The position numbers and the translations under genes are program-made. Shown piece after piece: positions 13,735 through 63,824 of a DNA stretch of 64,000 nt; position 1 is the first letter of the stretch, and every line of letters begins with the position of its first letter. Under the pieces are notes generated by a model, which saw only the letters and a program-made list of their open reading frames with translations, had not been told where the DNA came from and did no database searches. Origin of the DNA: Octopus vulgaris. Taxonomy: Eukaryota. Location of the stretch: contig OX597816.1 in NCBI GenBank assembly GCA_951406725.2, forward strand, positions 131,750,001 through 131,814,000, read 5' to 3'.

Positions 13735-14172
13735 TCATGTGTGTATAAATATAAACAAACTTACATTTGTTTTTATTAGAAGCATTGAAATGTGTATTGT
13801 ATGATACAAACAAGAATATGATATTTTTCAAACGCATTATTGCTGTACCCTTACAAGGTGAAAGAAGTTGTCAACAAACAGCCATGGGACTTGAACCCAC
13901 ATCCCCCAAGACTCTGGCTGAATGCTTTACCATTAAGCTAAACTGCTCACTGACAATTTCATCCACCGATTTAGATGCTAAATAGCTTATTGAACAACCA
14001 TGTGTGAATAAATATAAACAAACTTATATTTGTTATATATATTAGAAGTATTGAAATGTATATGGAAATGCACTCAGCCAGTGTCTTAGGGATGTGGGTT
14101 CAAATCCCATGGCTGTTTGTTGACAACTTTTTCTGCCTTGTAAGGGTAATTTACCCATTATTTCTGCTGTTT
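13735..14172. mobile_element. Rearranged copy of a tRNA-cloverleaf-carrying inverted-repeat element
   Basis: tRNA-like sequence at 13877-13947 (-) and a partial inverted copy at 14070-14148 (+). Direct repeat 13738-13797/14001-14062. Same family as 48889-49160. Confidence 0.7.
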
Positions 14173-15629
14173 TAAGGATAATATCTGGGTATAAATGGTC
14201 TTAAGGTATTTTAATATCATTTTGTTTGTTTACTTGATACCCTAATGTCATGAAGAAGCAAAGTATTGTGTTACATATCTGGAAAACATTGTTGTCTATA
14301 ATGGCGGTATTGTTGTCATTGTTGTTCTTTAATTCCAGGTCAAGCATACAAGCAGTGAACATCCTGTCCTTTTAAGTTTACACTATCTTATGGTTCCTTT
14401 CCTTATTCATGATAACACGATGTGATTTGAAAGAGCTTCGACTGTTCTACTGATATTTGTAGTATGTTGAGTGACTGCATAGAGGTGGCCTTGGCTCATT
14501 GGATATTGGGCTTCTTTATAGACTCACTACACCAGAGGTAAAACAAATAGGAAAGTAAGGGCAGTTGCTTTTGGTACAGTTTCCTCAGAGGCAGCTATCC
14601 TATGCACAATTGTAACCTCTCATCCCTACTAATTAAAATACGAACCTTCTAGAGCAGGCATTGGTACGCTTTTTCAAGAAATGGGCCACATGAGACTCGG
14701 TTCATCATCAGGCGGCCACACTACTAAAAAATTTCAAGTTAATTTTTCTTTGGTATGCTGTTCAGAAAGTCCCTTGGTCGATAGTTTGCTTATGACTGTT
14801 GTAGAGTATCTCTGCCTTTCAGGTACCGAGAATCTTTGCTATGTGACTGCAGGACATAGAGATAATCTTGCTGGTTTACTGCATAGAAACTCTCTCCCTA
14901 TGACACATCCTATAATGTAGTTTGAAGAGGGAACCCACTTTTTGCACTGAGAAGAAAGACTAAGGGCACATTTGAAGTAAAGTGGCTGGGAAATGGATTC
15001 ATATCTACATATTTCCATGTTTTGCTTAAAGAAGTTAACACATTTCTGTAGCATTGCCTTTCAAGTTTGAGTTCGAATCACAATAACAAGCTTAGCTGTT
15101 ATATCACCACTACAACTACTACTATCACACATTATATCCATCATCCTACCAAACACCACTAACATTATTATTATCATCATTGCTGATACCCTTATCATGA
15201 GCACCATCATCATTATCATCATCATCATTGTTGTGATTCTTATCATAATGAAACTAAAACCAGAGACTTTAAATAGTAGATCTGTGTTATACTTTCTACC
15301 CAACTTCATAGATGACATTGCAATCATGAAATCATGAATGTATGTACAATATTACACTGTTTCACATATGTAAAGTACTTTACCACTTTCTGAACAGAAA
15401 CCAAATGAAACTAGTATTTCATTTGACATCCATGCACTGATGACTCATATGCAATCTTCCTTTTCCGCATATCTTTCTCTGTATACTCAAGTTATTTTAT
15501 GTAGTCATCATCATCATCATCATCATCGTTTAGCGTCCGTTTTCCATGCTAGCATGTAGTTTCAGTAAATAGTAAATAGCAAAATCAATTTAAAACAACA
15601 ACTAAAAATAGTATTTTTTTTTACTAAAA

Positions 15630-23709: not shown

Positions 23710-23710
<1 letters not shown>

Positions 23711-24495
23711 TGAGAAGCTCAGGACTCAAAGCAGAAACAGAGGGATTTTTAATTGCAGCACAAGACCAAAGCCTCCCCACCAGAAATTACCAAAAACATG
23801 TAATGAAAAGAAATATTACAAGTAACTGCAGAATATGTGGAGATGGACAAGAAACAATAAATCATATTATCTCTAGCTGCCCAGTCCTGGCTAAGAAGGA
23901 ATATATTCACAGACATGACAGAGTTGGAACCTACATACATTGGAAGCTATGCCAACATTATGGAATAACAACAGAAAAAAGATGGTATAGGCACACACCA
24001 GAAAAGGTCACAGAAAACGAGAAAGCAACCATACTCTGGGATATGCCGATACACACAGATAGAGAAATTAAGGCCAACAGACCAGATATAGTTGTCAGAG
24101 ATCATGAAGAAAAAAATGCTTTCTAATTGATGTATCAATACCGGCAGATGACAACGTGTCTCTAAAAGAAATGGAGAAACTCTCAAAATACAAAGACCTG
24201 GAAATAGAGGTAACTAGAATGTGGAATCTGAAAACAGAAACAATTCCTATCATAGTAGGTGCATTAGGCATGATAAAAAAATATTCAGACAAATACATAA
24301 CAAAAACACCAGGACTTACAAACACATATAACATACAGAAAATTGCACTACTAGGCACTGCACACATCCTACGCAGAACACTTTCCATTCAATAACTGTC
24401 AGAGCATCACAACAAATCACAGCACATACCCAAGGCACACAGAGCTGCGCTCGGTAGTGAAGTGAAAGCACGCTATAAAAATAAAACTACTGAAC
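23710..24495 (+). mobile_element. R4/Dong-clade non-LTR retrotransposon, 5'-truncated (CCHC knuckle + RLE endonuclease + 3'UTR)
   Basis: ORFs 23710-24126 and 24156-24395: CRICGDGQETINHIISSC, RHD, NRPDIVV, EKLSKYKDL, PIIVGALG. One frameshift in the A-run near 24110. Sits within (TAA)n, the known Dong target. Confidence 0.9.
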
Positions 24496-25345: not shown

Positions 25346-25789
25346 TTAGCTGAAAATTGTACAGCTGTCCACACAAATGCTGCCTTGCTGTAGATATTTT
25401 TCTGACCAACAACATTAGTTTGATGTTTATAAAACTAATAGTGCCTGTTGAATTGCATCTCACACATACACTATAAATTTGTGTTGCAAAATACCTACTT
25501 ATCTATGTTGTAAGCATGCTGTGTGTGTGCATGCCTGCATGTGTGTGTGTGTATGTGTCTGCGCATGTGCATGCAAGTGTGTGTGCATGCCTGCATGTGT
25601 ATGTGTATGTGTGTGCGCATGTGTGTGTGTGTGTATGTGTGTTCTAAGCATGCTACATTTTTGCATGTTACAAATTTATTACATATATCTGTGTTTGAAA
25701 ATGTGTATATAGATAGTATGTAAATGTGTATATAGAGCAAGAAAGTAAGATAGACATAAATGGGTTTTGTGAGTGGGTGTATACGTACA

Positions 25790-26311
25790 ATATTGTTTTA
25801 AGAAGATGAAGATCTTGTTTTGTGTGTGATGTTGCTTGTTTACTGGGCCTAAGCCACTCATTACACTGCTTCATATTGATGTAAAGGCACCATTCTTCAT
25901 CACCAGTAATGATTCGGTAAAGAAATTGTTGCTTGTGTCCATGAGTTGAGTGGTGATGAGCAAGCAAACCAGCGGAGATTCTGGCTCTGTGATTTTTGTT
26001 ATCACTTAAAGCATGCGGAACCCATACTCCATACTTCCAAACCTTTCCCATCGAGTGAAGATGCTTCTCTATAGCAGTGTGGGAGCATTCCATTTTCTCT
26101 GCCAATTCCCTTATTTGACGAGAATTTTCATGCAAAATTTGGTTTAATTGCTCTTCATCAAACTCAACTAGACAGCCAGAATAAGGTGCGTTTTGAGGTC
26201 AAAATTTCCATTTTTGAACTTAGCATACCAATCATGAGCAGTTCCTTCAGCTATGGCACCCTCTCCATACACAGCACAAATGTTGCAAGCAGCTTTTGCA
26301 GCCTTTGAACC
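25790..26311 (-). mobile_element. mariner transposase 5' half (pseudogene)
   Basis: WYAKFKNGNFDL, WVPHAL, RIITGDEEW motifs (ORF 25668-26135 and upstream). Confidence 0.85.
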
Positions 26312-26640
26312 TTGGTCTGTAGAAAAGACGTAGATAGAAACTCCATAAGATGTACCCAGTGTAAGCTATGGAAACATAAGAGGTGCAGCAATATCAAAGG
26401 AAGGCTAACTGGGAAAATAGTTTTTGTATGTGGCAAATGCTCAGGAGCAATAAACACTGAAAATGTGCAGAGAAAAGCTTCTGTCACATTCCAGGGAGAA
26501 AAACTACAAATAGTTGATAGATTCTGTTACCTAGGTGACCTAGTCAGCAGCAGGGGTGGATGCTCTGAAAGTGTAGCCGCTAGAATAAGAATAGCCTGGA
26601 CAAAGTTCAGAGAGCACTTACCTCTGTTGGTGACAAAGAG
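26312..26640 (+). mobile_element. RTE LINE internal fragment (PHD finger + CYLG motif)
   Basis: ORF 26312-26740: NSIRCTQCKLWKHKRC..CGKC..FCYLGD..RIRIAWTKF. Confidence 0.85.
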
Positions 26641-27260
26641 GGTTAAGCAACCAAATGAAGACTCCCACATTGGTTTGATTGCTTACATAGTTTCTTATTG
26701 TTCTGTATGTGTTGATTCTCTGTTAGTCATATTTAAATAATGTACTACATATTATATATTTCCTTTAAAATGTCTCACCTATGTTATTTCTGTACACTGA
26801 ACGTGGCATTTTCAGTTTGTTGAGATTTGCATGTTTCAACTACCAGACATTAATCTCTTCTAAGTTTGCCTTCAATGACTTAATTCAAGTCCTTAGTATC
26901 CAGTGTATGTATAGTTAAGTGTTACTTTCATAGACACAATACAATGAGCTTAAGACCTTTATACTGTTCCTTATTCTCCTAATAATTAAAATATTCGCGC
27001 ATGTGTGAGTGAGTCAGTGTGTTGAATGTAGTGTAGTATTATTATCTTTTATTTTTTTATCTGTTTCAGTCATTAGACTGTGGTCATGCTGGGGCACCAC
27101 CATAAAATTTTAGTTTAATGAATTGATCTCAGTACTTAATATTTTTAACCCTGGAACTTATTCTATAGGTCTTTTTTGCTGAACTGCTAAGTTACGGGAA
27201 AGTAAGCACACCAACACTGGTTGTCAAACTGTGGTCAGTGGTAGGACACAAACACAGACA

Positions 27261-33687: not shown

Positions 33688-34093
33688 GTATATATATGCA
33701 TGCACATGTGTATCTATGTATGTATGTATAATATATTTGCCAACTAAAAGACATATATATGTGCAAACATACATATATATACATATGTATATATATATGC
33801 GCGTGTGTGTGTGTGTGTATATATACATACATGTGTGTGTGTGTGTGTATGTGCATATAAATAAATAAAGATATTATAAGTGGCCAGCAAACATTAAAGC
33901 CAAAAAGGCGAATTTTTTAATTTATAATTAATTATTAATTATAATTCAAGGTACACGAAGTATCATTGATAAAAATAAGAGTTGAAAGATACTCAAATTA
34001 GCCACCATTTCACTGAAAATACAACAGGCTGACAAAAATCAAAGGACAAGCAAAATTTAAGTTACCATTGCAGCAAATGAGGATCACAGATAT

Positions 34094-34148
34094 CCCTATA
34101 TTACATGATTTCGAACTTTGAGATATTTCCCTTAGCTCATCAGTAGGG
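34094..34148 (-). ncRNA. Type I hammerhead ribozyme motif (in an AT-rich pLTR-like element about 33880-34350)
   Basis: CCCTA-CTGATGA-GCTAAGGGAAATATCTCAAAGTTC-GAAA-TCATGTAA-TA-TAGGG; perfect 5-bp stem I. Confidence 0.75.
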
Positions 34149-34374
34149 TTAGGTCTCACTGTTAGCCATGGGTTAAATATATGCTCACTTCGTCATATTT
34201 GTGAAGATTGTTGAAAGATTCGTGCCAAATTCATACAATGTCACTGTATAATTATACATAAACAAGTAAAGGTATTATTATTCAGCTTATTTGAGTATTT
34301 TTTGACTCTTATTTCTAGCAATACTGGTACTTTGTGTACCCTCAATCATAATTAATAATTATGCATATACATAT

Positions 34375-35665
34375 TGATGTTGATGTCTCCTCAAGCACAG
34401 CAGGTTGCCCTACGATCCAAGGTTAGCACAGCAGGCCGTCCTGCGAGCCATGAACTCACTTCATTTATTAGGTCTTCACTGTCACAGCATATCCCCAGAG
34501 GTCTTGGCTTTCATCATAGCCTCTGTGAGGCCCAACGTTCGAAGGTCTTGCTTGACCACCTCATCCCATGTCTTCCTGGGTCTACCTCTACCCCAGATTC
34601 CTTCAACAGTTTGGGAGTGGCACTTCTTTACACATTTCTTCTCATCCATCCGTAGTACATGACCATACCAACACAAACGTCTCTCCTGCACGCCACATCC
34701 GATGCTTCTCATGTCCAACATTTCTCTCAGGATGCTTACACTCTGTCATGCATGGACACTGACATTACACATCCAGCGGATCATGCTAGCTTCATTTCTT
34801 TCAAGCCTACACATGTCCTCTGCAGTCACAGCCCATGTTTCACTACCGTGAAGCATGGCAGTTCACACACATGCATCGTACAATCTACCTTTCACTCTGA
34901 GCTAGAGACCCTTTGTCACCAGTAGGGGTAGAAGCTTCCTAAACTTTGCCCAGGCTATTCTTATTCTAGTGGTAACACTCTCTGAGCATCCACCCCCACT
35001 ACTAACTTGGTCACCTAGGTAGCTGAAATTATCAACTACTTCTAGCTTCTTCCCCTGGAGTGTGGTGGAATCTGTTTTCTGAGTATCTGTGGCGTCTACT
35101 GCTCCTGTGCATCTGCTGCACACAAAAGCTATCTTCTCAGTTAATTTTCCTTTGATGTTGCTGCACCTTTTATGTGTCCATAGCTTGTGCATCTGCTGCA
35201 CACAAAAGCTATCTTCTCAGTTAATTTTCCTTTGATGTTGCTGCACCTTTTATGTGTCCATAGCTTGTGCATCTGCTGCACACAAAAGCTATCTTCTCGG
35301 TTAATTTTCCTTTGATGTTGCTGCACCTCTTATGTGTCCATAGCTCACACTGGGTACATCATATGGAGTTTCTACCTACACCTTTTCTACAGATCGAGCA
35401 GGGCCACCTACCTAAGGGGGTGTGGGATGAGTTCGCCTTCCTACTTACTAGAACTTTGGTCTTTGCTACATTGTCTCTAAGGCCTTTTGATTCTAAACCT
35501 TACTTCCACACACGAAATTTCTTTTCTAGTTCCGCTAGTGATTCTGCTATAAGGGCCAGGTCATCAGCATAAAGGATCCCCAGTGGCAACCCTGGGAGCT
35601 CCTTTCTTGAATTCCTCTGTTATTGCCTTGAATTCCTTGGTCTTGAATTCCTCTGTTATTGCCTA
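34375..35665 (-). mobile_element. RTE LINE 3' half with an internal 80-bp triplication
   Basis: YADD-region remnants, PHD finger, FSYLGD, RRLCWYGHV..RGRPRKTW (ORF 34482-34721). Confidence 0.9.
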
Positions 35666-54152: not shown

Positions 54153-55418
54153 TGAAATGTCTGATTTTGAACTGAAAGTTTATTTTACTTTATTTTAATG
54201 AAAAGCAATGCAGTTAATCAAAGTATGCACCTAAATTATCGACACAATTTTGCCATTTTATCAGTAGCTTATTTATGCTGGCAGTGAATAATTCTGGAGA
54301 GCAAGAGGAGATGAAATCACGAAAGCTGTTTTTGCATCTTCTTCAGATTTGAAGTCTTTCCCTGGCAAAAAGTTGTCTAATGCCTGGAAAATGTGATAGT
54401 CAGTTGGTGCAAGGTATGGTGAATATAGTGGATGACAGAGTACTTTCACGTTCAGTTCCTGTAACTTGAGTAGCCTTCTTTGTGCAACAGGTGGTCGAGC
54501 ATTGTCTTGCAAGAGAATTGGCCTGTCTCTACTGACCAATCTCAGTTGTTTAATTGCAAGTTCACTCATCATTTTATCCAGTTGGTTGATGTATACATCT
54601 ACTGTAATTGACTTACCAGGTCTCATGAAGCTGTAGTGGATGGCACCATCACTGGATCACCAAACAGACACCATTAGCTTTTTTTGGTGAATATTTTTTT
54701 TTTGGATTATGTTTTGGCACTTTGTCTCTATCCAACTACCATGCAGAATGCTCGCTATTGTTGAAAAGAATCCATTTTTCATCACATGTAACAATACGAT
54801 GCAAAAATTGTTTGCTTTTATGCTGTGACAGCAAAGAACAGCAAGTTTCAAGACAACGTGTCATTTGATGATCTTTCAGTTCATGTGGTACCCACTTGTC
54901 CAGCTTCTTTACTTTGCCAATTTGTTTCAGATGGTTCAATACAGTTGGAATCCAGAATTCAAACCTTACTGCTAACTCACGCATAGTTTGAAATGTATCC
55001 ACTGCCACTACAGTTTCCAGCTCATTATTATCCACCTTGGTCTCAGGTCTACCATGGGGCTGATTTTCAAGAGTAAAGTCACCAGACTGGAACTTCTCAA
55101 ACCATCGACGTGCAGTGTGCTCATTCGCCACATCTTTCCCAAACACCTCATTGATGTTTTGATCTGTCTGGGATGCATTAGTTCCATGATGGAAATCATA
55201 TTTATAAACAATATGAAATTTTGATCTATTCATGAGTTCACAAAAATTGATTTACAAGAGAAAACTCACAATATAAACAGATACCATGAATTGCATTTCG
55301 AAAAGTGATGATGTAACTCTTCAATGTTGTAAAACAAAGAATTGTCAGGATAAAACATTAGAGTTAACAACTATCAAACTTGATATATAAGAAAATTGGA
55401 CATTTCATTCTTAATGAC

Positions 55419-59820: not shown

Positions 59821-60160
59821 GTCAAGGTGCATGGCTTAGTGGTTAGAGCATCGAGCTTATAATCGTGAGGTTGTGAGCTCGAAGCCCAGACCGGTCTGCG
59901 TGTTGTGTTCTTGAGCAAGACACTTTATTTCACGTTGCTCCAGTTCACTCATCTGTAGAAATGAGTTGCGATGTCACAGGTGCCAAGCTGTATCGGCCTT
60001 TGCTCTTCCCTTGGATAACACTGGTGGCGTGGAGAGGGGAGTCCGGTATGCATGGGCGACTGCTGGTCTTCCATAAACAACCTTGCCTGGCTTCGTGCCT
60101 CAAAGGGTAACATTCTAGCTGCAATCCCATGGTCTGTGTCGTGACCGAAGGGGGTCTCAG
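59821..60160 (+). mobile_element. tRNA-derived SINE
   Basis: A/B boxes; TSD AAGTAAAAGC; aligns to 62687-63023. Confidence 0.9.
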
Positions 60161-60369
60161 AAAGTAAAAGCAAAGCTCTGCTTGAAAAATAATTGTTATT
60201 TCTTCTGCATATAGTGCATTGACATACTTCAATTTCTGGATTTTACTCTGGGACAGAAAGTTGATATTTCTGAAAAAGACTGAAGTCCAAGCAATTTTTA
60301 TTAAAAGAACTATCTCAGAAAGTCTGAAGAAACTGTACTTCTGATTAACATGCAAGCAGCATATTATTT

Positions 60370-61656
60370 ATGATTTACCAAAGACTTGAGGTATTTCGTG
60401 TTGCAAGACGGTGTGTGAGAGAGAATCGTGATGTGGTAGGAGAGAAATGTGTTCGCATGGATGATGGTTCACTTGCGCTAAATGAGGATGCAAAGAGAGA
60501 GGTTTGGAAACACCACTATGAAAGGTTGCTGAATAAAGAAAATGAATGGGATAAAGAGAGTCTGCCGAATGTCAACCCAACAGAGGGACCAGCTATCCGA
60601 ATTGACAGTTCTTTGGTAGTTAAGGCAATTAGGAGCATGAAGACAGGAAAAGCCCCAGGCCCATCAGGAATTACTGCAGTGATGCTCAAAATATCTGGCA
60701 GTGTCGGCTATAGCCTAGTCACCCGTATAGTTAACCAGGTGATACACAAAGGAGTCATACCCAATGACTGGTGTAGCAGCATAATAGTCAACTGCTACAA
60801 AGGTAAAGGTGATGCCCTAGATACGAATAATTACAGAGGTATCAAGTTGTTGGATCAGGTAATGAAGGTTACGGAGAGGGTCATAGCCCAACTGATAAGG
60901 GAGAGAGTCAACTTGGATGAGATGCAGTTTGGTTTCGTGCCAGGAAAAAGCACCACTGATGCCATATTTCTGGTGAGACAGCTGCAGGAGAAATACCTAG
61001 CCAAAGATAAGCCCCTGTACCTGGCTTTCATTGACATGGAGAAAGCCTTCGACAGGGTCCCCCGATCCCTTATCTGGTGGTCAATGAGGAAACTAGGGAT
61101 AGATGAATGGCTGGTGAGAGCTGTGCAAGCCATGTACAGGGATGCTGTAAGTAAGGTTAGGGTTGGCAACGTGTACACTGAAGAATTCCGGGTAGAGGTT
61201 GGGGTCCACCAAGGTTCAGTCCTCAGCCCCCTCCTATTTATCATAGTCCTCCAGGCAATTACAGAGGAATTCAAGACAGGATGCCCCTGGGAGCTCCTAT
61301 ATGCTGATGACCTTGCTCTAATTGCTGAGTCACTATCAGAACTGGAGGAGAAGTTTCAGGTGTGGAAGGAGGGATTAGAATCGAAGGGCCTTAGAGTCAA
61401 CCTAGCTAAAACCAAAGTCCTAATAAGTAGGAAGGTAGACAAATCACAAATGCCTTCAGGTAGATGGCCCTGCTCGATCTGTAGAAAAGGCGTAGGTAGA
61501 AACTCTATAAGATGTACCCAGTGTAAGCTATGGGCACATAAGAGGTGCAGCAATGTCAAAGGAAGGCTAACTGGGAAGATAATTTTTGTATGTGGCAGAT
61601 GCTCCGATGGATGTGTAATGTCAGTGTGCATACTCGACAGAGTGTTAGTACCTTGA
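60370..61656 (+). CDS. RTE reverse transcriptase (truncated ORF; lacks the APE endonuclease) with inserted PHD-type zinc finger
   Basis: KAPGPSGI, NYRGIKLL, QFGF, AFIDMEKAFDRV, GVHQGSVLSPLLF, YADD, GLRVNLAKTK, then C4HC3 at 61471-61602. Confidence 0.9.
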   Translation: MIYQRLEVFRVARRCVRENRDVVGEKCVRMDDGSLALNEDAKREVWKHHYERLLNKENEWDKESLPNVNPTEGPAIRIDSSLVVKAIRSMKTGKAPGPSGITAVMLKISGSVGYSLVTRIVNQVIHKGVIPNDWCSSIIVNCYKGKGDALDTNNYRGIKLLDQVMKVTERVIAQLIRERVNLDEMQFGFVPGKSTTDAIFLVRQLQEKYLAKDKPLYLAFIDMEKAFDRVPRSLIWWSMRKLGIDEWLVRAVQAMYRDAVSKVRVGNVYTEEFRVEVGVHQGSVLSPLLFIIVLQAITEEFKTGCPWELLYADDLALIAESLSELEEKFQVWKEGLESKGLRVNLAKTKVLISRKVDKSQMPSGRWPCSICRKGVGRNSIRCTQCKLWAHKRCSNVKGRLTGKIIFVCGRCSDGCVMSVCILDRVLVP

Positions 61657-62550
61657 GAGAAATGTTGGACCTAAGAAGCATCAGCTGTGGTGTGCAAGAG
61701 AGATGATTGCGCTGGTATGGTCATGTGGAGAGAATGGATGAAGATAGGTGTGTGAAAAAGTGCCAATCCCTAGTAGTTGAGGGAATCCGTGGAAGAGGTA
61801 AACCCAGGAAAACCTGGGACGAGGTGGTGAAGCACGACCTTCGAACTTTAGGTCTCACCGAGGCAATGACTAGCGACCGAGACCTTTGGAAATATGCTGT
61901 GCGTGAGAAGACCCGGCAGGACAAGTGAGTCCAGCCCACTTATGCATGTCTTTCCTCCCTTGGACACACAAAGACCTGTTGAGGCAAGTGAAGTTGAAAT
62001 TGAACCTCATTCGACGACAGGCACCCATGCCAACCTCCCTTCATTGGACACTAAACTCTGCTTGCGAAGACCTGTTGGGGCAAGTGAAATCGGAATCGAA
62101 ATTGAACTGACTCCTGTGCAGGTGGCAAGTGAAGAAACACCATTTCGACCCTGTGCTTGAGGAGATCCATTGAGTCAAGTACACCAACATCAAAATCAAT
62201 AAAAATTGCAGTTGCGATCCCTGTGCCGGTGGCATGTAAAGAGCACCATCTGAATGTGGCTGATGCCAGCGCCGCCTTGACTGGCTTCCGTGCTGGTGGC
62301 ACGTAAAATGCACCAATCTGATCGTGGCCGTTGCCAGACTCGCCTGGCACCTGTGCAGGTGGCATGTAAAAAGCACCCACTATACTCACGGAGTGGATGG
62401 CGTTAGGAAGGGCATCCAGCTGTAGAAACATTGCCAGATAAGACTGGAGCCTGGTGCAGCCTTCTGGCTTCCAGATCCTTGGTCAAACCGTCCAACCCAT
62501 GCTAGCATGGAGAATGGACGTTAAACGATGATGATGATGATGATGATGAT
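60383..62550 (+). mobile_element. Young 5'-truncated RTE-clade LINE with ~330-bp internal deletion, long 3'UTR and (GAT)n tail
   Basis: RT ORF; C-terminal RWYGHV..RGKPRKTW (61707-61928); 3'UTR ending GGACGTTAAAC(GAT)n. Confidence 0.93.
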
Positions 62551-62686: not shown

Positions 62687-63023
62687 CCGCATGGCTCAGT
62701 GGTTAGAGCGTCGAGCTTACGATCGTGAGGTTGTGAGCTCGAATCCCGGACCGGGCTGCGTGTTGTGTTCTTGAGCAAGGCACTTTATTTCACGTTGCTC
62801 CAGTTCACTCAGCTGTAGAAATGAGCTGCGATGTCACTGGTGCCAAGCTGTATCGACCTTTGTCTTTCCCTTGGATAACACTGGTGGTGTGGAGAGGGGA
62901 GGCTGGTATGCATGGGCGACTGCTGGTCTTCCATAAACAACCTTGCCCGGACTTGTGTCTAGGAGGGTAACTTTCTAGGTGCTATCCCATGGTCATTCAT
63001 GACCGAAGGGGGTCTTTACCCCC
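62687..63023 (+). mobile_element. Young tRNA-derived SINE
   Basis: TGGCTCAGTGG A box, GAGCTCGAATCC B box, CpGs retained. Confidence 0.9.
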
Positions 63024-63148: not shown

Positions 63149-63231
<83 letters not shown>

Positions 63232-63337
63232 CCTGCTCGCTTAGCCAGTGGGGTGGCGTCATTCGAAGGCTAAAACAGTGCGAACGCATTGTGACCAGCG
63301 ATGTGGCAACATCTGATGGTCTGGTCGGTCACGTGAT

Positions 63338-63372
<35 letters not shown>

Positions 63373-63376
<4 letters not shown>

Positions 63377-63810
63377 TTAATATAAACAACCAGATACAAT
63401 GTGATACAATACAGGAAAGATTCAATTGTTACCAAGTGTGACTTAGGATGCCAGAGCACCTACATTGCTAAAACTAAGAGTTAAAATACTCTTAATGCTG
63501 TAAGAAGAGTGCATACAATATACTCACATGCTGATGGAGAAGCAACCACACCAAGACCACTTCAAGGATCCTCAGACTAGATCTAGTTTCATCTATAACT
63601 GTCGACATCATCAGTGAGGACTGCTTGAATGGTGCATGATCAGCTAATTCCCTCTGCCAGCATATACGTATTTACCATAAAAATTTATGCACAATTTAGC
63701 TAACTGGTAATGCATATACTAACAATTAATATAAACAGCCAAGCACAATGTGATACCATAAAGGAAAAATATAATCATCACTAAGTGTGACTTAGGATGC
63801 TGGAGCACCG
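63373..63810 (-). mobile_element. Hammerhead-bearing element with 349-bp partial tandem unit (retrozyme/Penelope pLTR-like)
   Basis: 86-bp direct repeats at 63375-63460 and 63724-63809; hammerhead between them; abuts (TA)n. Confidence 0.8.
63569..63620 (-). ncRNA. Type I hammerhead ribozyme
   Basis: TCCTCA-CTGATGA-TGTCGACAGTTATAGAT-GAAA-CTAGATCTAG-TC-TGAGGA: 6-bp stem I, palindromic stem III, GUC cleavage triplet. Confidence 0.85.
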
Positions 63811-63824
63811 CCATTTGGGCTCAA

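Follow-up and report, generated by a model that had tools for sequence, protein, structure and literature searches.

A decayed, retrozyme-like insertion with a type I hammerhead motif beside a (TA)n tract, probably of the non-autonomous PLE type

What kind of element leaves a hammerhead motif between two direct repeats 349 bases apart, beside a (TA)n tract: a retrozyme, the pseudo-LTR (pLTR) of a PLE, or neither? Many animal genomes contain thousands of retrozyme units and of PLE remnants that carry hammerheads. A preliminary description of this locus had proposed a retrozyme with a nearly intact ribozyme. We analysed the whole stretch of 64 kb (hereafter the window) together with related contigs from public sequencing runs, and we class the locus as a retrozyme-like insertion of the non-autonomous PLE type that has decayed, rather than as an active retrozyme. 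It is probably a decayed copy of a non-autonomous, PLE-dependent unit of the retrozyme type, inserted at (TA)n from a template longer than one unit. The parts of the insertion are as follows.

63375..63815, minus strand (read 5' to 3' along it): whole insertion of 441 bases, in which a non-coding unit of 349 bases is present about 1.25 times
63724..63815, minus strand: partial copy on the 5' side, made up of the final 92 bases of the preceding unit and ending in the usual 3' terminus of the family; 82% identical to 63375-63466
63622..63723, minus strand: linker from the 3' terminus of the unit to the hammerhead, present across the junction in other copies
63375..63466, minus strand: 3' terminal repeat copy, forming the 3' end of the insertion, as defined by the repeat alignment
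63344..63373, no strand: (TA)15 microsatellite adjoining the insertion on its 3' side and likely to have been its target

The direct repeats reported earlier, 86 bases long and 349 bases apart without indels, were recovered at 63375-63460 and 63724-63809, with 71 of 86 positions identical (82.6%) and an E value of 4.7e-19 within the 64 kb window; the alignment can be lengthened to 92 bases at 82% identity, and position 63724 is equivalent to 63375 in the register of the repeat. Twelve of the 15 differences between the two are transitions and their Jukes-Cantor distance is 0.20 substitutions per site. If the host is an octopus, the calibration for octopus in PMC13282606 would turn the share of each repeat, about 0.10 substitutions per site, into an age of roughly 25-30 million years. 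The proposed layout of 1.25 monomers ending at (TA)n also held, the 3' end adjoining (TA)15, as did the claim that the insertion is non-coding, none of its six frames holding a reading frame of note. A single match of the longest frame (its one stop taken as X) to a repeated-peptide protein, at an E value of 3.5e-4, was rejected as a coding remnant, and the frame matched no Pfam family. The 349-base unit has a GC content of 36.7%. At its right end the insertion passes into a pyrimidine-rich tract that continues up to the end of the window, and no target-site duplication was discernible on inspection of the flanks. The window holds no second copy of the unit, only its 3' motif recurring in another element. 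Among 13 distinct positions of the repeat listed as often different in other copies, the two repeats agree at 6, and both share a form 11 bases longer than a common variant; these agreements fit a single template for both repeats without proving it.

The hammerhead lies on the minus strand as had been described, with CUGAUGA at 63614-63608, GAAA at 63590-63587, GUC at 63577-63575 and the predicted cut after C63575. Stem I, formed by 63621-63615 and 63574-63568, has 7 pairs and is open, as the type I order requires.

63568..63621, minus strand: type I hammerhead with a 7-pair stem I, a core of CUGAUGA and GAAA, and a GUC triplet
63556..63633, minus strand: extension of stem I past a small internal loop, predicted by folding
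63591..63607, minus strand: unpaired U and stem II, with G-U at 10.1-11.1 and a G-A mismatch at the fourth pair in the studied copy
63576..63587, minus strand: stem III, a perfect 12-base palindrome giving 4 pairs and a 4-base loop in a monomer and a 12-pair helix in a dimer

Core, triplet and the seven pairs of stem I are whole; stem II is damaged. A structural descriptor, written after the motif had been seen, has its single match in the 64 kb window at the studied hammerhead; among shuffled windows it matched 2 of 200 in its relaxed form and 0 of 200 in its strict form. A search of 141 bases against Rfam returned no hammerhead, either at the gathering threshold or with E values up to 10, and the weak matches to miRNA and snoRNA models were rejected as microsatellite or box look-alikes. 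Elsewhere in the window, at 14711 on the minus strand, CUGAUGA is followed by GAAA 32 bases on, with stems that fail the descriptor.

Of 24 public sequencing runs listed, 20 contain part of the studied stretch; they stand under five organism labels, and none is on record as RNA. Contigs of four runs were aligned to the stretch at 80% likeness, a level at which arrays more than 20% diverged would escape, and what is said here of single pieces draws on the 32 listed of 1,436, of joints on 15 of 77, and of differences on 40 of 191. X1 and X14 are DNA runs, the latter under another organism label. X1 contributed 649 contigs, 8 of them at least 99% alike to the stretch, followed by 34, 220 and, below 90%, 387; X14 contributed 607. 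Likeness was under 95% in 607 of the 649 and in 559 of the 607. Judged by these contigs, the family is an old, dispersed, non-coding repeat with a unit of 340-350 bases. Its 3' end is fixed, unrelated loose letters standing exactly before 63724 in 31 contigs of X1 and 44 of X14 (agreement 0.45 and 0.44). Diverged contigs tile the entire unit as a closed circuit: record 1 (63475-63682) carries motif, hammerhead and linker, record 18 (63560-63804) carries hammerhead, linker and terminus and reaches 80 bases into the terminus, and joints from terminus to motif go back 338, 347 and 349. These going-back joints were rejected as evidence of an array, since a single unit gives them too.

The strongest competing explanation is that an autonomous PLE left the locus behind as a plain pLTR remnant, a 5'-truncated copy of 349 bases next to a truncated copy of 92 bases, with no small unit that replicates. 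Partial tandems, hammerheads in pLTRs, (TA)n targets and inverted copies are all described as normal in autonomous PLEs (PMC8557442, PMC3846280), and genomic PLE hammerheads are reported to be mostly single motifs from truncated copies (PMC4209133). A joint in X1 from 63513 to 63724 may likewise be a partial tandem with a different junction, on which account the junctions of the family would not all be alike. Independent truncations, however, would give private junctions, yet 7 of the 16 listed pieces (records 6, 7, 8, 18, 21, 23 and 24; 3 of 8 in X1 and 4 of 8 in X14), diverged to 82-87% identity, bridge the same junction 63723|63724 with at least 31 letters on each side. Because seven diverged contigs among those listed cross it, the unit is a trait of the family and not a one-off truncation. 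A difference at 63723 itself is carried by 52 contigs in X1 and 48 in X14, up to 87 and 82 letters from contig ends, and 100 bases upstream of the hammerhead the sequence enters the element's own 3' end where a plain pLTR would have a coding end. We therefore hold a plain pLTR remnant to be unlikely.

Support for a PLE-style ribozyme in the family came from the differences between copies. In place of the mismatch, other copies carry at 63603 a pairing letter that gives a U-A pair (13 contigs in X1, 246 of 282.5 depth; 12 in X14, 83 of 87), and C11.1 at 63591, which makes a G-C closing pair, is found in 8 contigs of X1 (144 of 247 depth) and 5 of X14 (22 of 69), where it is the minority by depth. 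In the extension of stem I, an RNA-strand G at 63626 and a C at 63564 replace an A-U pair in other copies, the two letters not being seen together on one contig. Core bases are free of differences among the 40 of 191 listed. PLE hammerheads have been characterised by an unpaired base between 9 and 10.1, by G10.1-C11.1 and by a palindromic stem III (PMC4209133), and of these the unpaired U and the palindrome are present in the studied copy, while G10.1-C11.1 is found in part of the other copies. By its letters, then, the family appears once to have had a proper PLE-style ribozyme, of which the studied copy is a damaged one; with a decayed stem II, the folding predictions indicate that the locus is likely inactive as a ribozyme. 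The palindromic stem III may serve in a dimer, by analogy with the hammerheads of PMC4209133.

The family bears several marks of PLEs, namely the fixed 3' end with unrelated flanks, the inverted joints and the PLE-style ribozyme, and the studied locus adds a microsatellite target. Joints to the opposite strand made up 4 of the 15 listed, none of them at the studied locus; the inverted arrangement is described as typical of PLEs (PMC8557442). As an autonomous PLE with the same terminus was not found in the window, dependence on PLEs rests on the layout and the type of ribozyme. A crude motif scan of the 64 kb window found neither a PLE reverse transcriptase (RT) nor a GIY-YIG motif, and no frame with RT plus GIY-YIG is joined to the studied locus, upstream of which come the element's own 3' end and then the pyrimidine-rich tract. 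That all homologues should be attached to a PLE ORF, a finding named beforehand as speaking against a retrozyme, was not seen.

Mobilisation by machinery other than that of PLEs was weighed next, either by a LINE, such as an RTE-like one nearby, or by duplication at the DNA level, the hammerhead being a passenger and the element perhaps a satellite relic. LINE fragments encoding RT are present in the window, LINEs have been left open as mobilisers of retrozymes (PMC7229834), and a local duplication of 349 bases could in principle make the repeat. The insertion, on the other hand, has no tail of its own made of poly(A) or short repeats and is unlike the LINE pieces of the window, and the inverted joints, the junction common to other copies and the PLE-type ribozyme favour PLEs, so that we regard this origin as quite improbable.

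Nor does the locus look like an active retrozyme, that is, one transcribed here or from near-identical arrays, self-cleaving after C63575 and closing into a circle of 349 bases; this we consider very improbable. The unit has the size of the retrozymes of mussel (350-390) and axolotl (331 and 353) as given in PMC7229834, its core and GUC triplet are intact, and folding it as a circle gives a stability slightly above that of shuffled sequences (z -1.9; 2 of 100 shuffles did as well). Hammerhead-alone z-scores were not significant (-0.18, -1.42 and 0.04). The predicted active fold, however, has -15.4 kcal/mol against -22.6 kcal/mol for the best fold, and in the studied copy the pair probabilities of stems II and III are below 0.01 (about 0.002 for the damaged stem II); stem I and the greater part of its extension, by contrast, are predicted to be well formed. 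Release of a monomer is reported to need two hammerheads (bioRxiv 10.64898/2026.07.22.740005) and the locus has one, with a unit overlap of 92 bases in place of two units each bearing a hammerhead; having one, it cannot release a monomer alone. According to the same preprint, 1 of 9 predicted intact dimers cleaved in vitro. Summed depth over the hammerhead in X1 is 230-256 and the contig of the studied locus has 19.3, a ratio of roughly twelve, summed depth not being equal to copy number. With 8 of 649 contigs at least 99% alike and this depth, no large young array of the studied sequence shows; no tandem array was found, and no high-depth, near-identical contig stood among those listed. Two runs guessed to be of RNA, X9 and X13, have no joint among the 15 of 77 listed, and no inference was drawn from them; record 27 of X9 (63503-63769, 1 difference, depth 2) runs through the cut site and may be DNA, as may record 12 of X13, a piece of the studied locus that runs into its flank.

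A chance repeat with a chance hammerhead look-alike or C/D-box-like motif is hardly credible: Rfam has no hammerhead match and its best weak one, to a C/D snoRNA model, scores 17.8 bits where 40 are required, but the E value of the repeat, the rarity of descriptor matches among shuffles and the stem II pairs restored in other copies all speak against it.

A retrozyme unit is supported by the size of 349 bases, the GC content, the non-coding sequence and the type I hammerhead; against an active retrozyme stand the single hammerhead, the decayed ribozyme, and the array and circle, neither of which was found. Retrozyme and pLTR are also no clean either-or, because a 2026 preprint derives animal retrozymes from pLTRs (bioRxiv 10.64898/2026.07.22.740005).

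How a non-autonomous, PLE-dependent unit could have come to lie here may be sketched as follows. A borrowed PLE endonuclease and reverse transcriptase would have nicked the TA tract, and copying would have begun inside the template, at a fixed position that lies 200 bases downstream of where the ribozyme cuts. Reverse transcription would then have run past the cut site and through one full unit, stopping 92 bases into the next. As copying of 441 bases from 63375 crosses the cut site once, the template would have been unbroken there. A head-to-tail transcript that escaped cleavage and a circle closed by religation both qualify; we lean towards the transcript, the circle is a serious possibility, and the sequence fits both. 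The distance of 0.20 substitutions per site between the repeats, and the decay of stem II, would date from after the insertion. PLE enzymes are reported to nick AT-rich DNA and to begin reverse transcription within the RNA, unprocessed RNA being their main substrate and ribozyme cleavage being dispensable in vitro (PMC11167929). It had been suggested that a copy longer than one unit is what reverse transcription around an RNA circle would leave. This does not follow, as PLE RT is described to start inside uncleaved linear RNA (PMC11167929), and a copy of more than one unit is no proof of a circle because partial tandems are a normal product of PLEs. Circles as templates for such PLE copies had already been proposed in the discussion of PMC4209133.

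An alternative reading goes further and is possible, though on the doubtful side. In it, the family would spread without arrays via circles of 340-350 bases, a PLE enzyme reading the closed RNA circle from one fixed start 200 bases past the cut; the 12-base palindrome would let two separate molecules cleave as a dimer, and 63452-63500 would be the common signal of PLE-dependent mini-elements. If true, it would join the internal initiation of PLEs to rolling-circle copying in one system.

Returning to the preferred reading, of a PLE-dependent unit copied from a template longer than itself, the part of the unit shared most widely is a short motif on the 3' side of the hammerhead.

63452..63500, minus strand: motif shared more widely than the rest of the unit; it lies 75-125 bases on the 3' side of the predicted cut and is a candidate enzyme-recognition signal

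Summed depth in X1 rises to 20,819 at 63451-63501, about 80 times the 230-256 over the hammerhead, and because of this deeper coverage the motif appears to be common to many more repeat copies or families than the hammerhead. In a PLE of the anole, a protein-binding region is reported just downstream of the hammerhead, near the start of reverse transcription (PMC11167929), and as that region is similarly placed, we read the motif as a candidate recognition signal of the enzyme. The AG before CATT at 63498|63497 is kept in four listed groups of loose ends at 63491-63492 whose upstream letters differ, and may mark the 3' splice site of a retained intron; the only GTGAG donor at the studied locus would give 30 bases. 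The pattern of the 3' motif had 0 matches in metagenomes. That of the hammerhead core was found in 2 viral and at least 118 metagenome stretches, and of 119 loci compared none aligned to the element at an E value of 0.01.

A second hammerhead-like element was observed at 33945-34350 on the minus strand, with a core at 34143, a stem I of 5 pairs and decayed stems II and III, the core failing the descriptor. It has inverted terminal repeats of about 63 bases (79%) and holds the shared motif twice, inverted, at its ends; core and motif stand on one strand, the decayed core some 100 bases upstream, with a 53-base GT-AG stretch between them. Its arrangement resembles that of a PLE remnant accompanied by a truncated partner in inverted orientation. 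Its global alignment with the unit was uninformative.

The window is rich in other repeats. A frame of 435 codons at 60349-61656 encodes RT and a PHD-like finger and is a LINE fragment, to which further fragments at 26309-26740, 34902-35572 and 61356-61670 are related; the match of this nearby RT is an amphioxus protein (54%). Downstream of it, at 62220-62377, a unit of 63 bases is repeated 2.4 times at 73%, and a zf-RVT domain fragment at 23710-24126 is the C-terminal part of another non-LTR element. The repeat at 62690-63015 and 60006-60157 has a tRNA-like head, shares 129 bases at 89% and is probably a SINE. Between two (TA)n tracts, the 115-base piece 63229-63343 ends in a doubled 8-base palindrome and is probably the 3' part of another SINE-like repeat. 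An Rfam tRNA match at 13876-13947 on the minus strand (37.5 bits) is probably a tRNA-derived repeat, with a similar tRNA 3' half near 14090-14120 and flanks repeated about 260 bases apart. Remnants of Mariner-type transposases with the Mos1 HTH domain occur at 54273-55251 and 25668-26198.

That retrozymes are derivatives of PLEs is already in print, and the studied family adds a member to that kind. It also offers material for the question of whether PLE copies of more than one unit arise from RNA circles or from linear tandem transcripts, as, given a short unit, a fixed 3' end and a conserved junction, the answer can be counted from a genome assembly; the motif of 50 bases found in so many copies is a concrete candidate for the binding site of the PLE enzyme. 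A cephalopod host, at which the microsatellites and the LINE and SINE-like repeats of the window may hint, would extend retrozyme-type units to cephalopods. No report of retrozymes in this group was found in the literature searched, most subscription journals, Repbase and supplements lying outside it; the main text of the Octopus vulgaris repeat paper, its supplements aside, mentions neither 'retrozyme' nor 'hammerhead', and supplementary PLE family lists with hammerheads may include the studied family.

Among known systems, the non-LTR retrozymes of metazoans are described with units of 150-450 bases (Cervera and de la Pena 2020, PMC7229834). The studied unit resembles them, as characterised there, in its size of 349 bases, a GC content below 45%, its non-coding sequence, the type I hammerhead and the head-to-tail overlap. 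They occur, however, as dimers to multimers, whereas the studied insertion has one hammerhead in 1.25 units; the family is moreover old and dispersed, has the bulge of a PLE-style ribozyme and is known here from DNA sequence alone. A recent preprint presents animal retrozymes as non-autonomous PLE derivatives that include solo monomers (Li, Clavereau and Pollet 2026, bioRxiv 10.64898/2026.07.22.740005). The insertion fits its 'monomer' class, a lone full-length unit that is pLTR-like and likely incapable of transposition, and falls outside the two-unit definition of an active retrozyme applied there to a sample of 31 vertebrates and 4 invertebrates.

Pseudo-LTRs with hammerheads are reported for PLEs by Cervera and de la Pena 2014 (PMC4209133), Craig et al. 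2021 (PMC8557442) and Frangieh et al. 2024 (PMC11167929). With these, as described, the studied family has in common a hammerhead upstream of a fixed 3' end, a partial tandem, inverted truncated partners and an AT-rich or (TA)n target, as well as the bulged base before stem II and the palindromic stem III. In contrast to pLTRs, the unit has no RT-GIY-YIG frame, and upstream of the ribozyme it returns to its own 3' end after about 100 bases; compared with minimal PLE hammerheads its stem III is longer (4 pairs). The non-autonomous elements of Chlamys, which are reported to share their 3' ends with their helpers (PMC8557442), differ in being green algal, mostly without canonical hammerheads and recently active. 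Those of the MRC1 type are, like the studied family, non-autonomous and PLE-dependent, with pLTR-like and head-to-tail insertions (PMC8557442).
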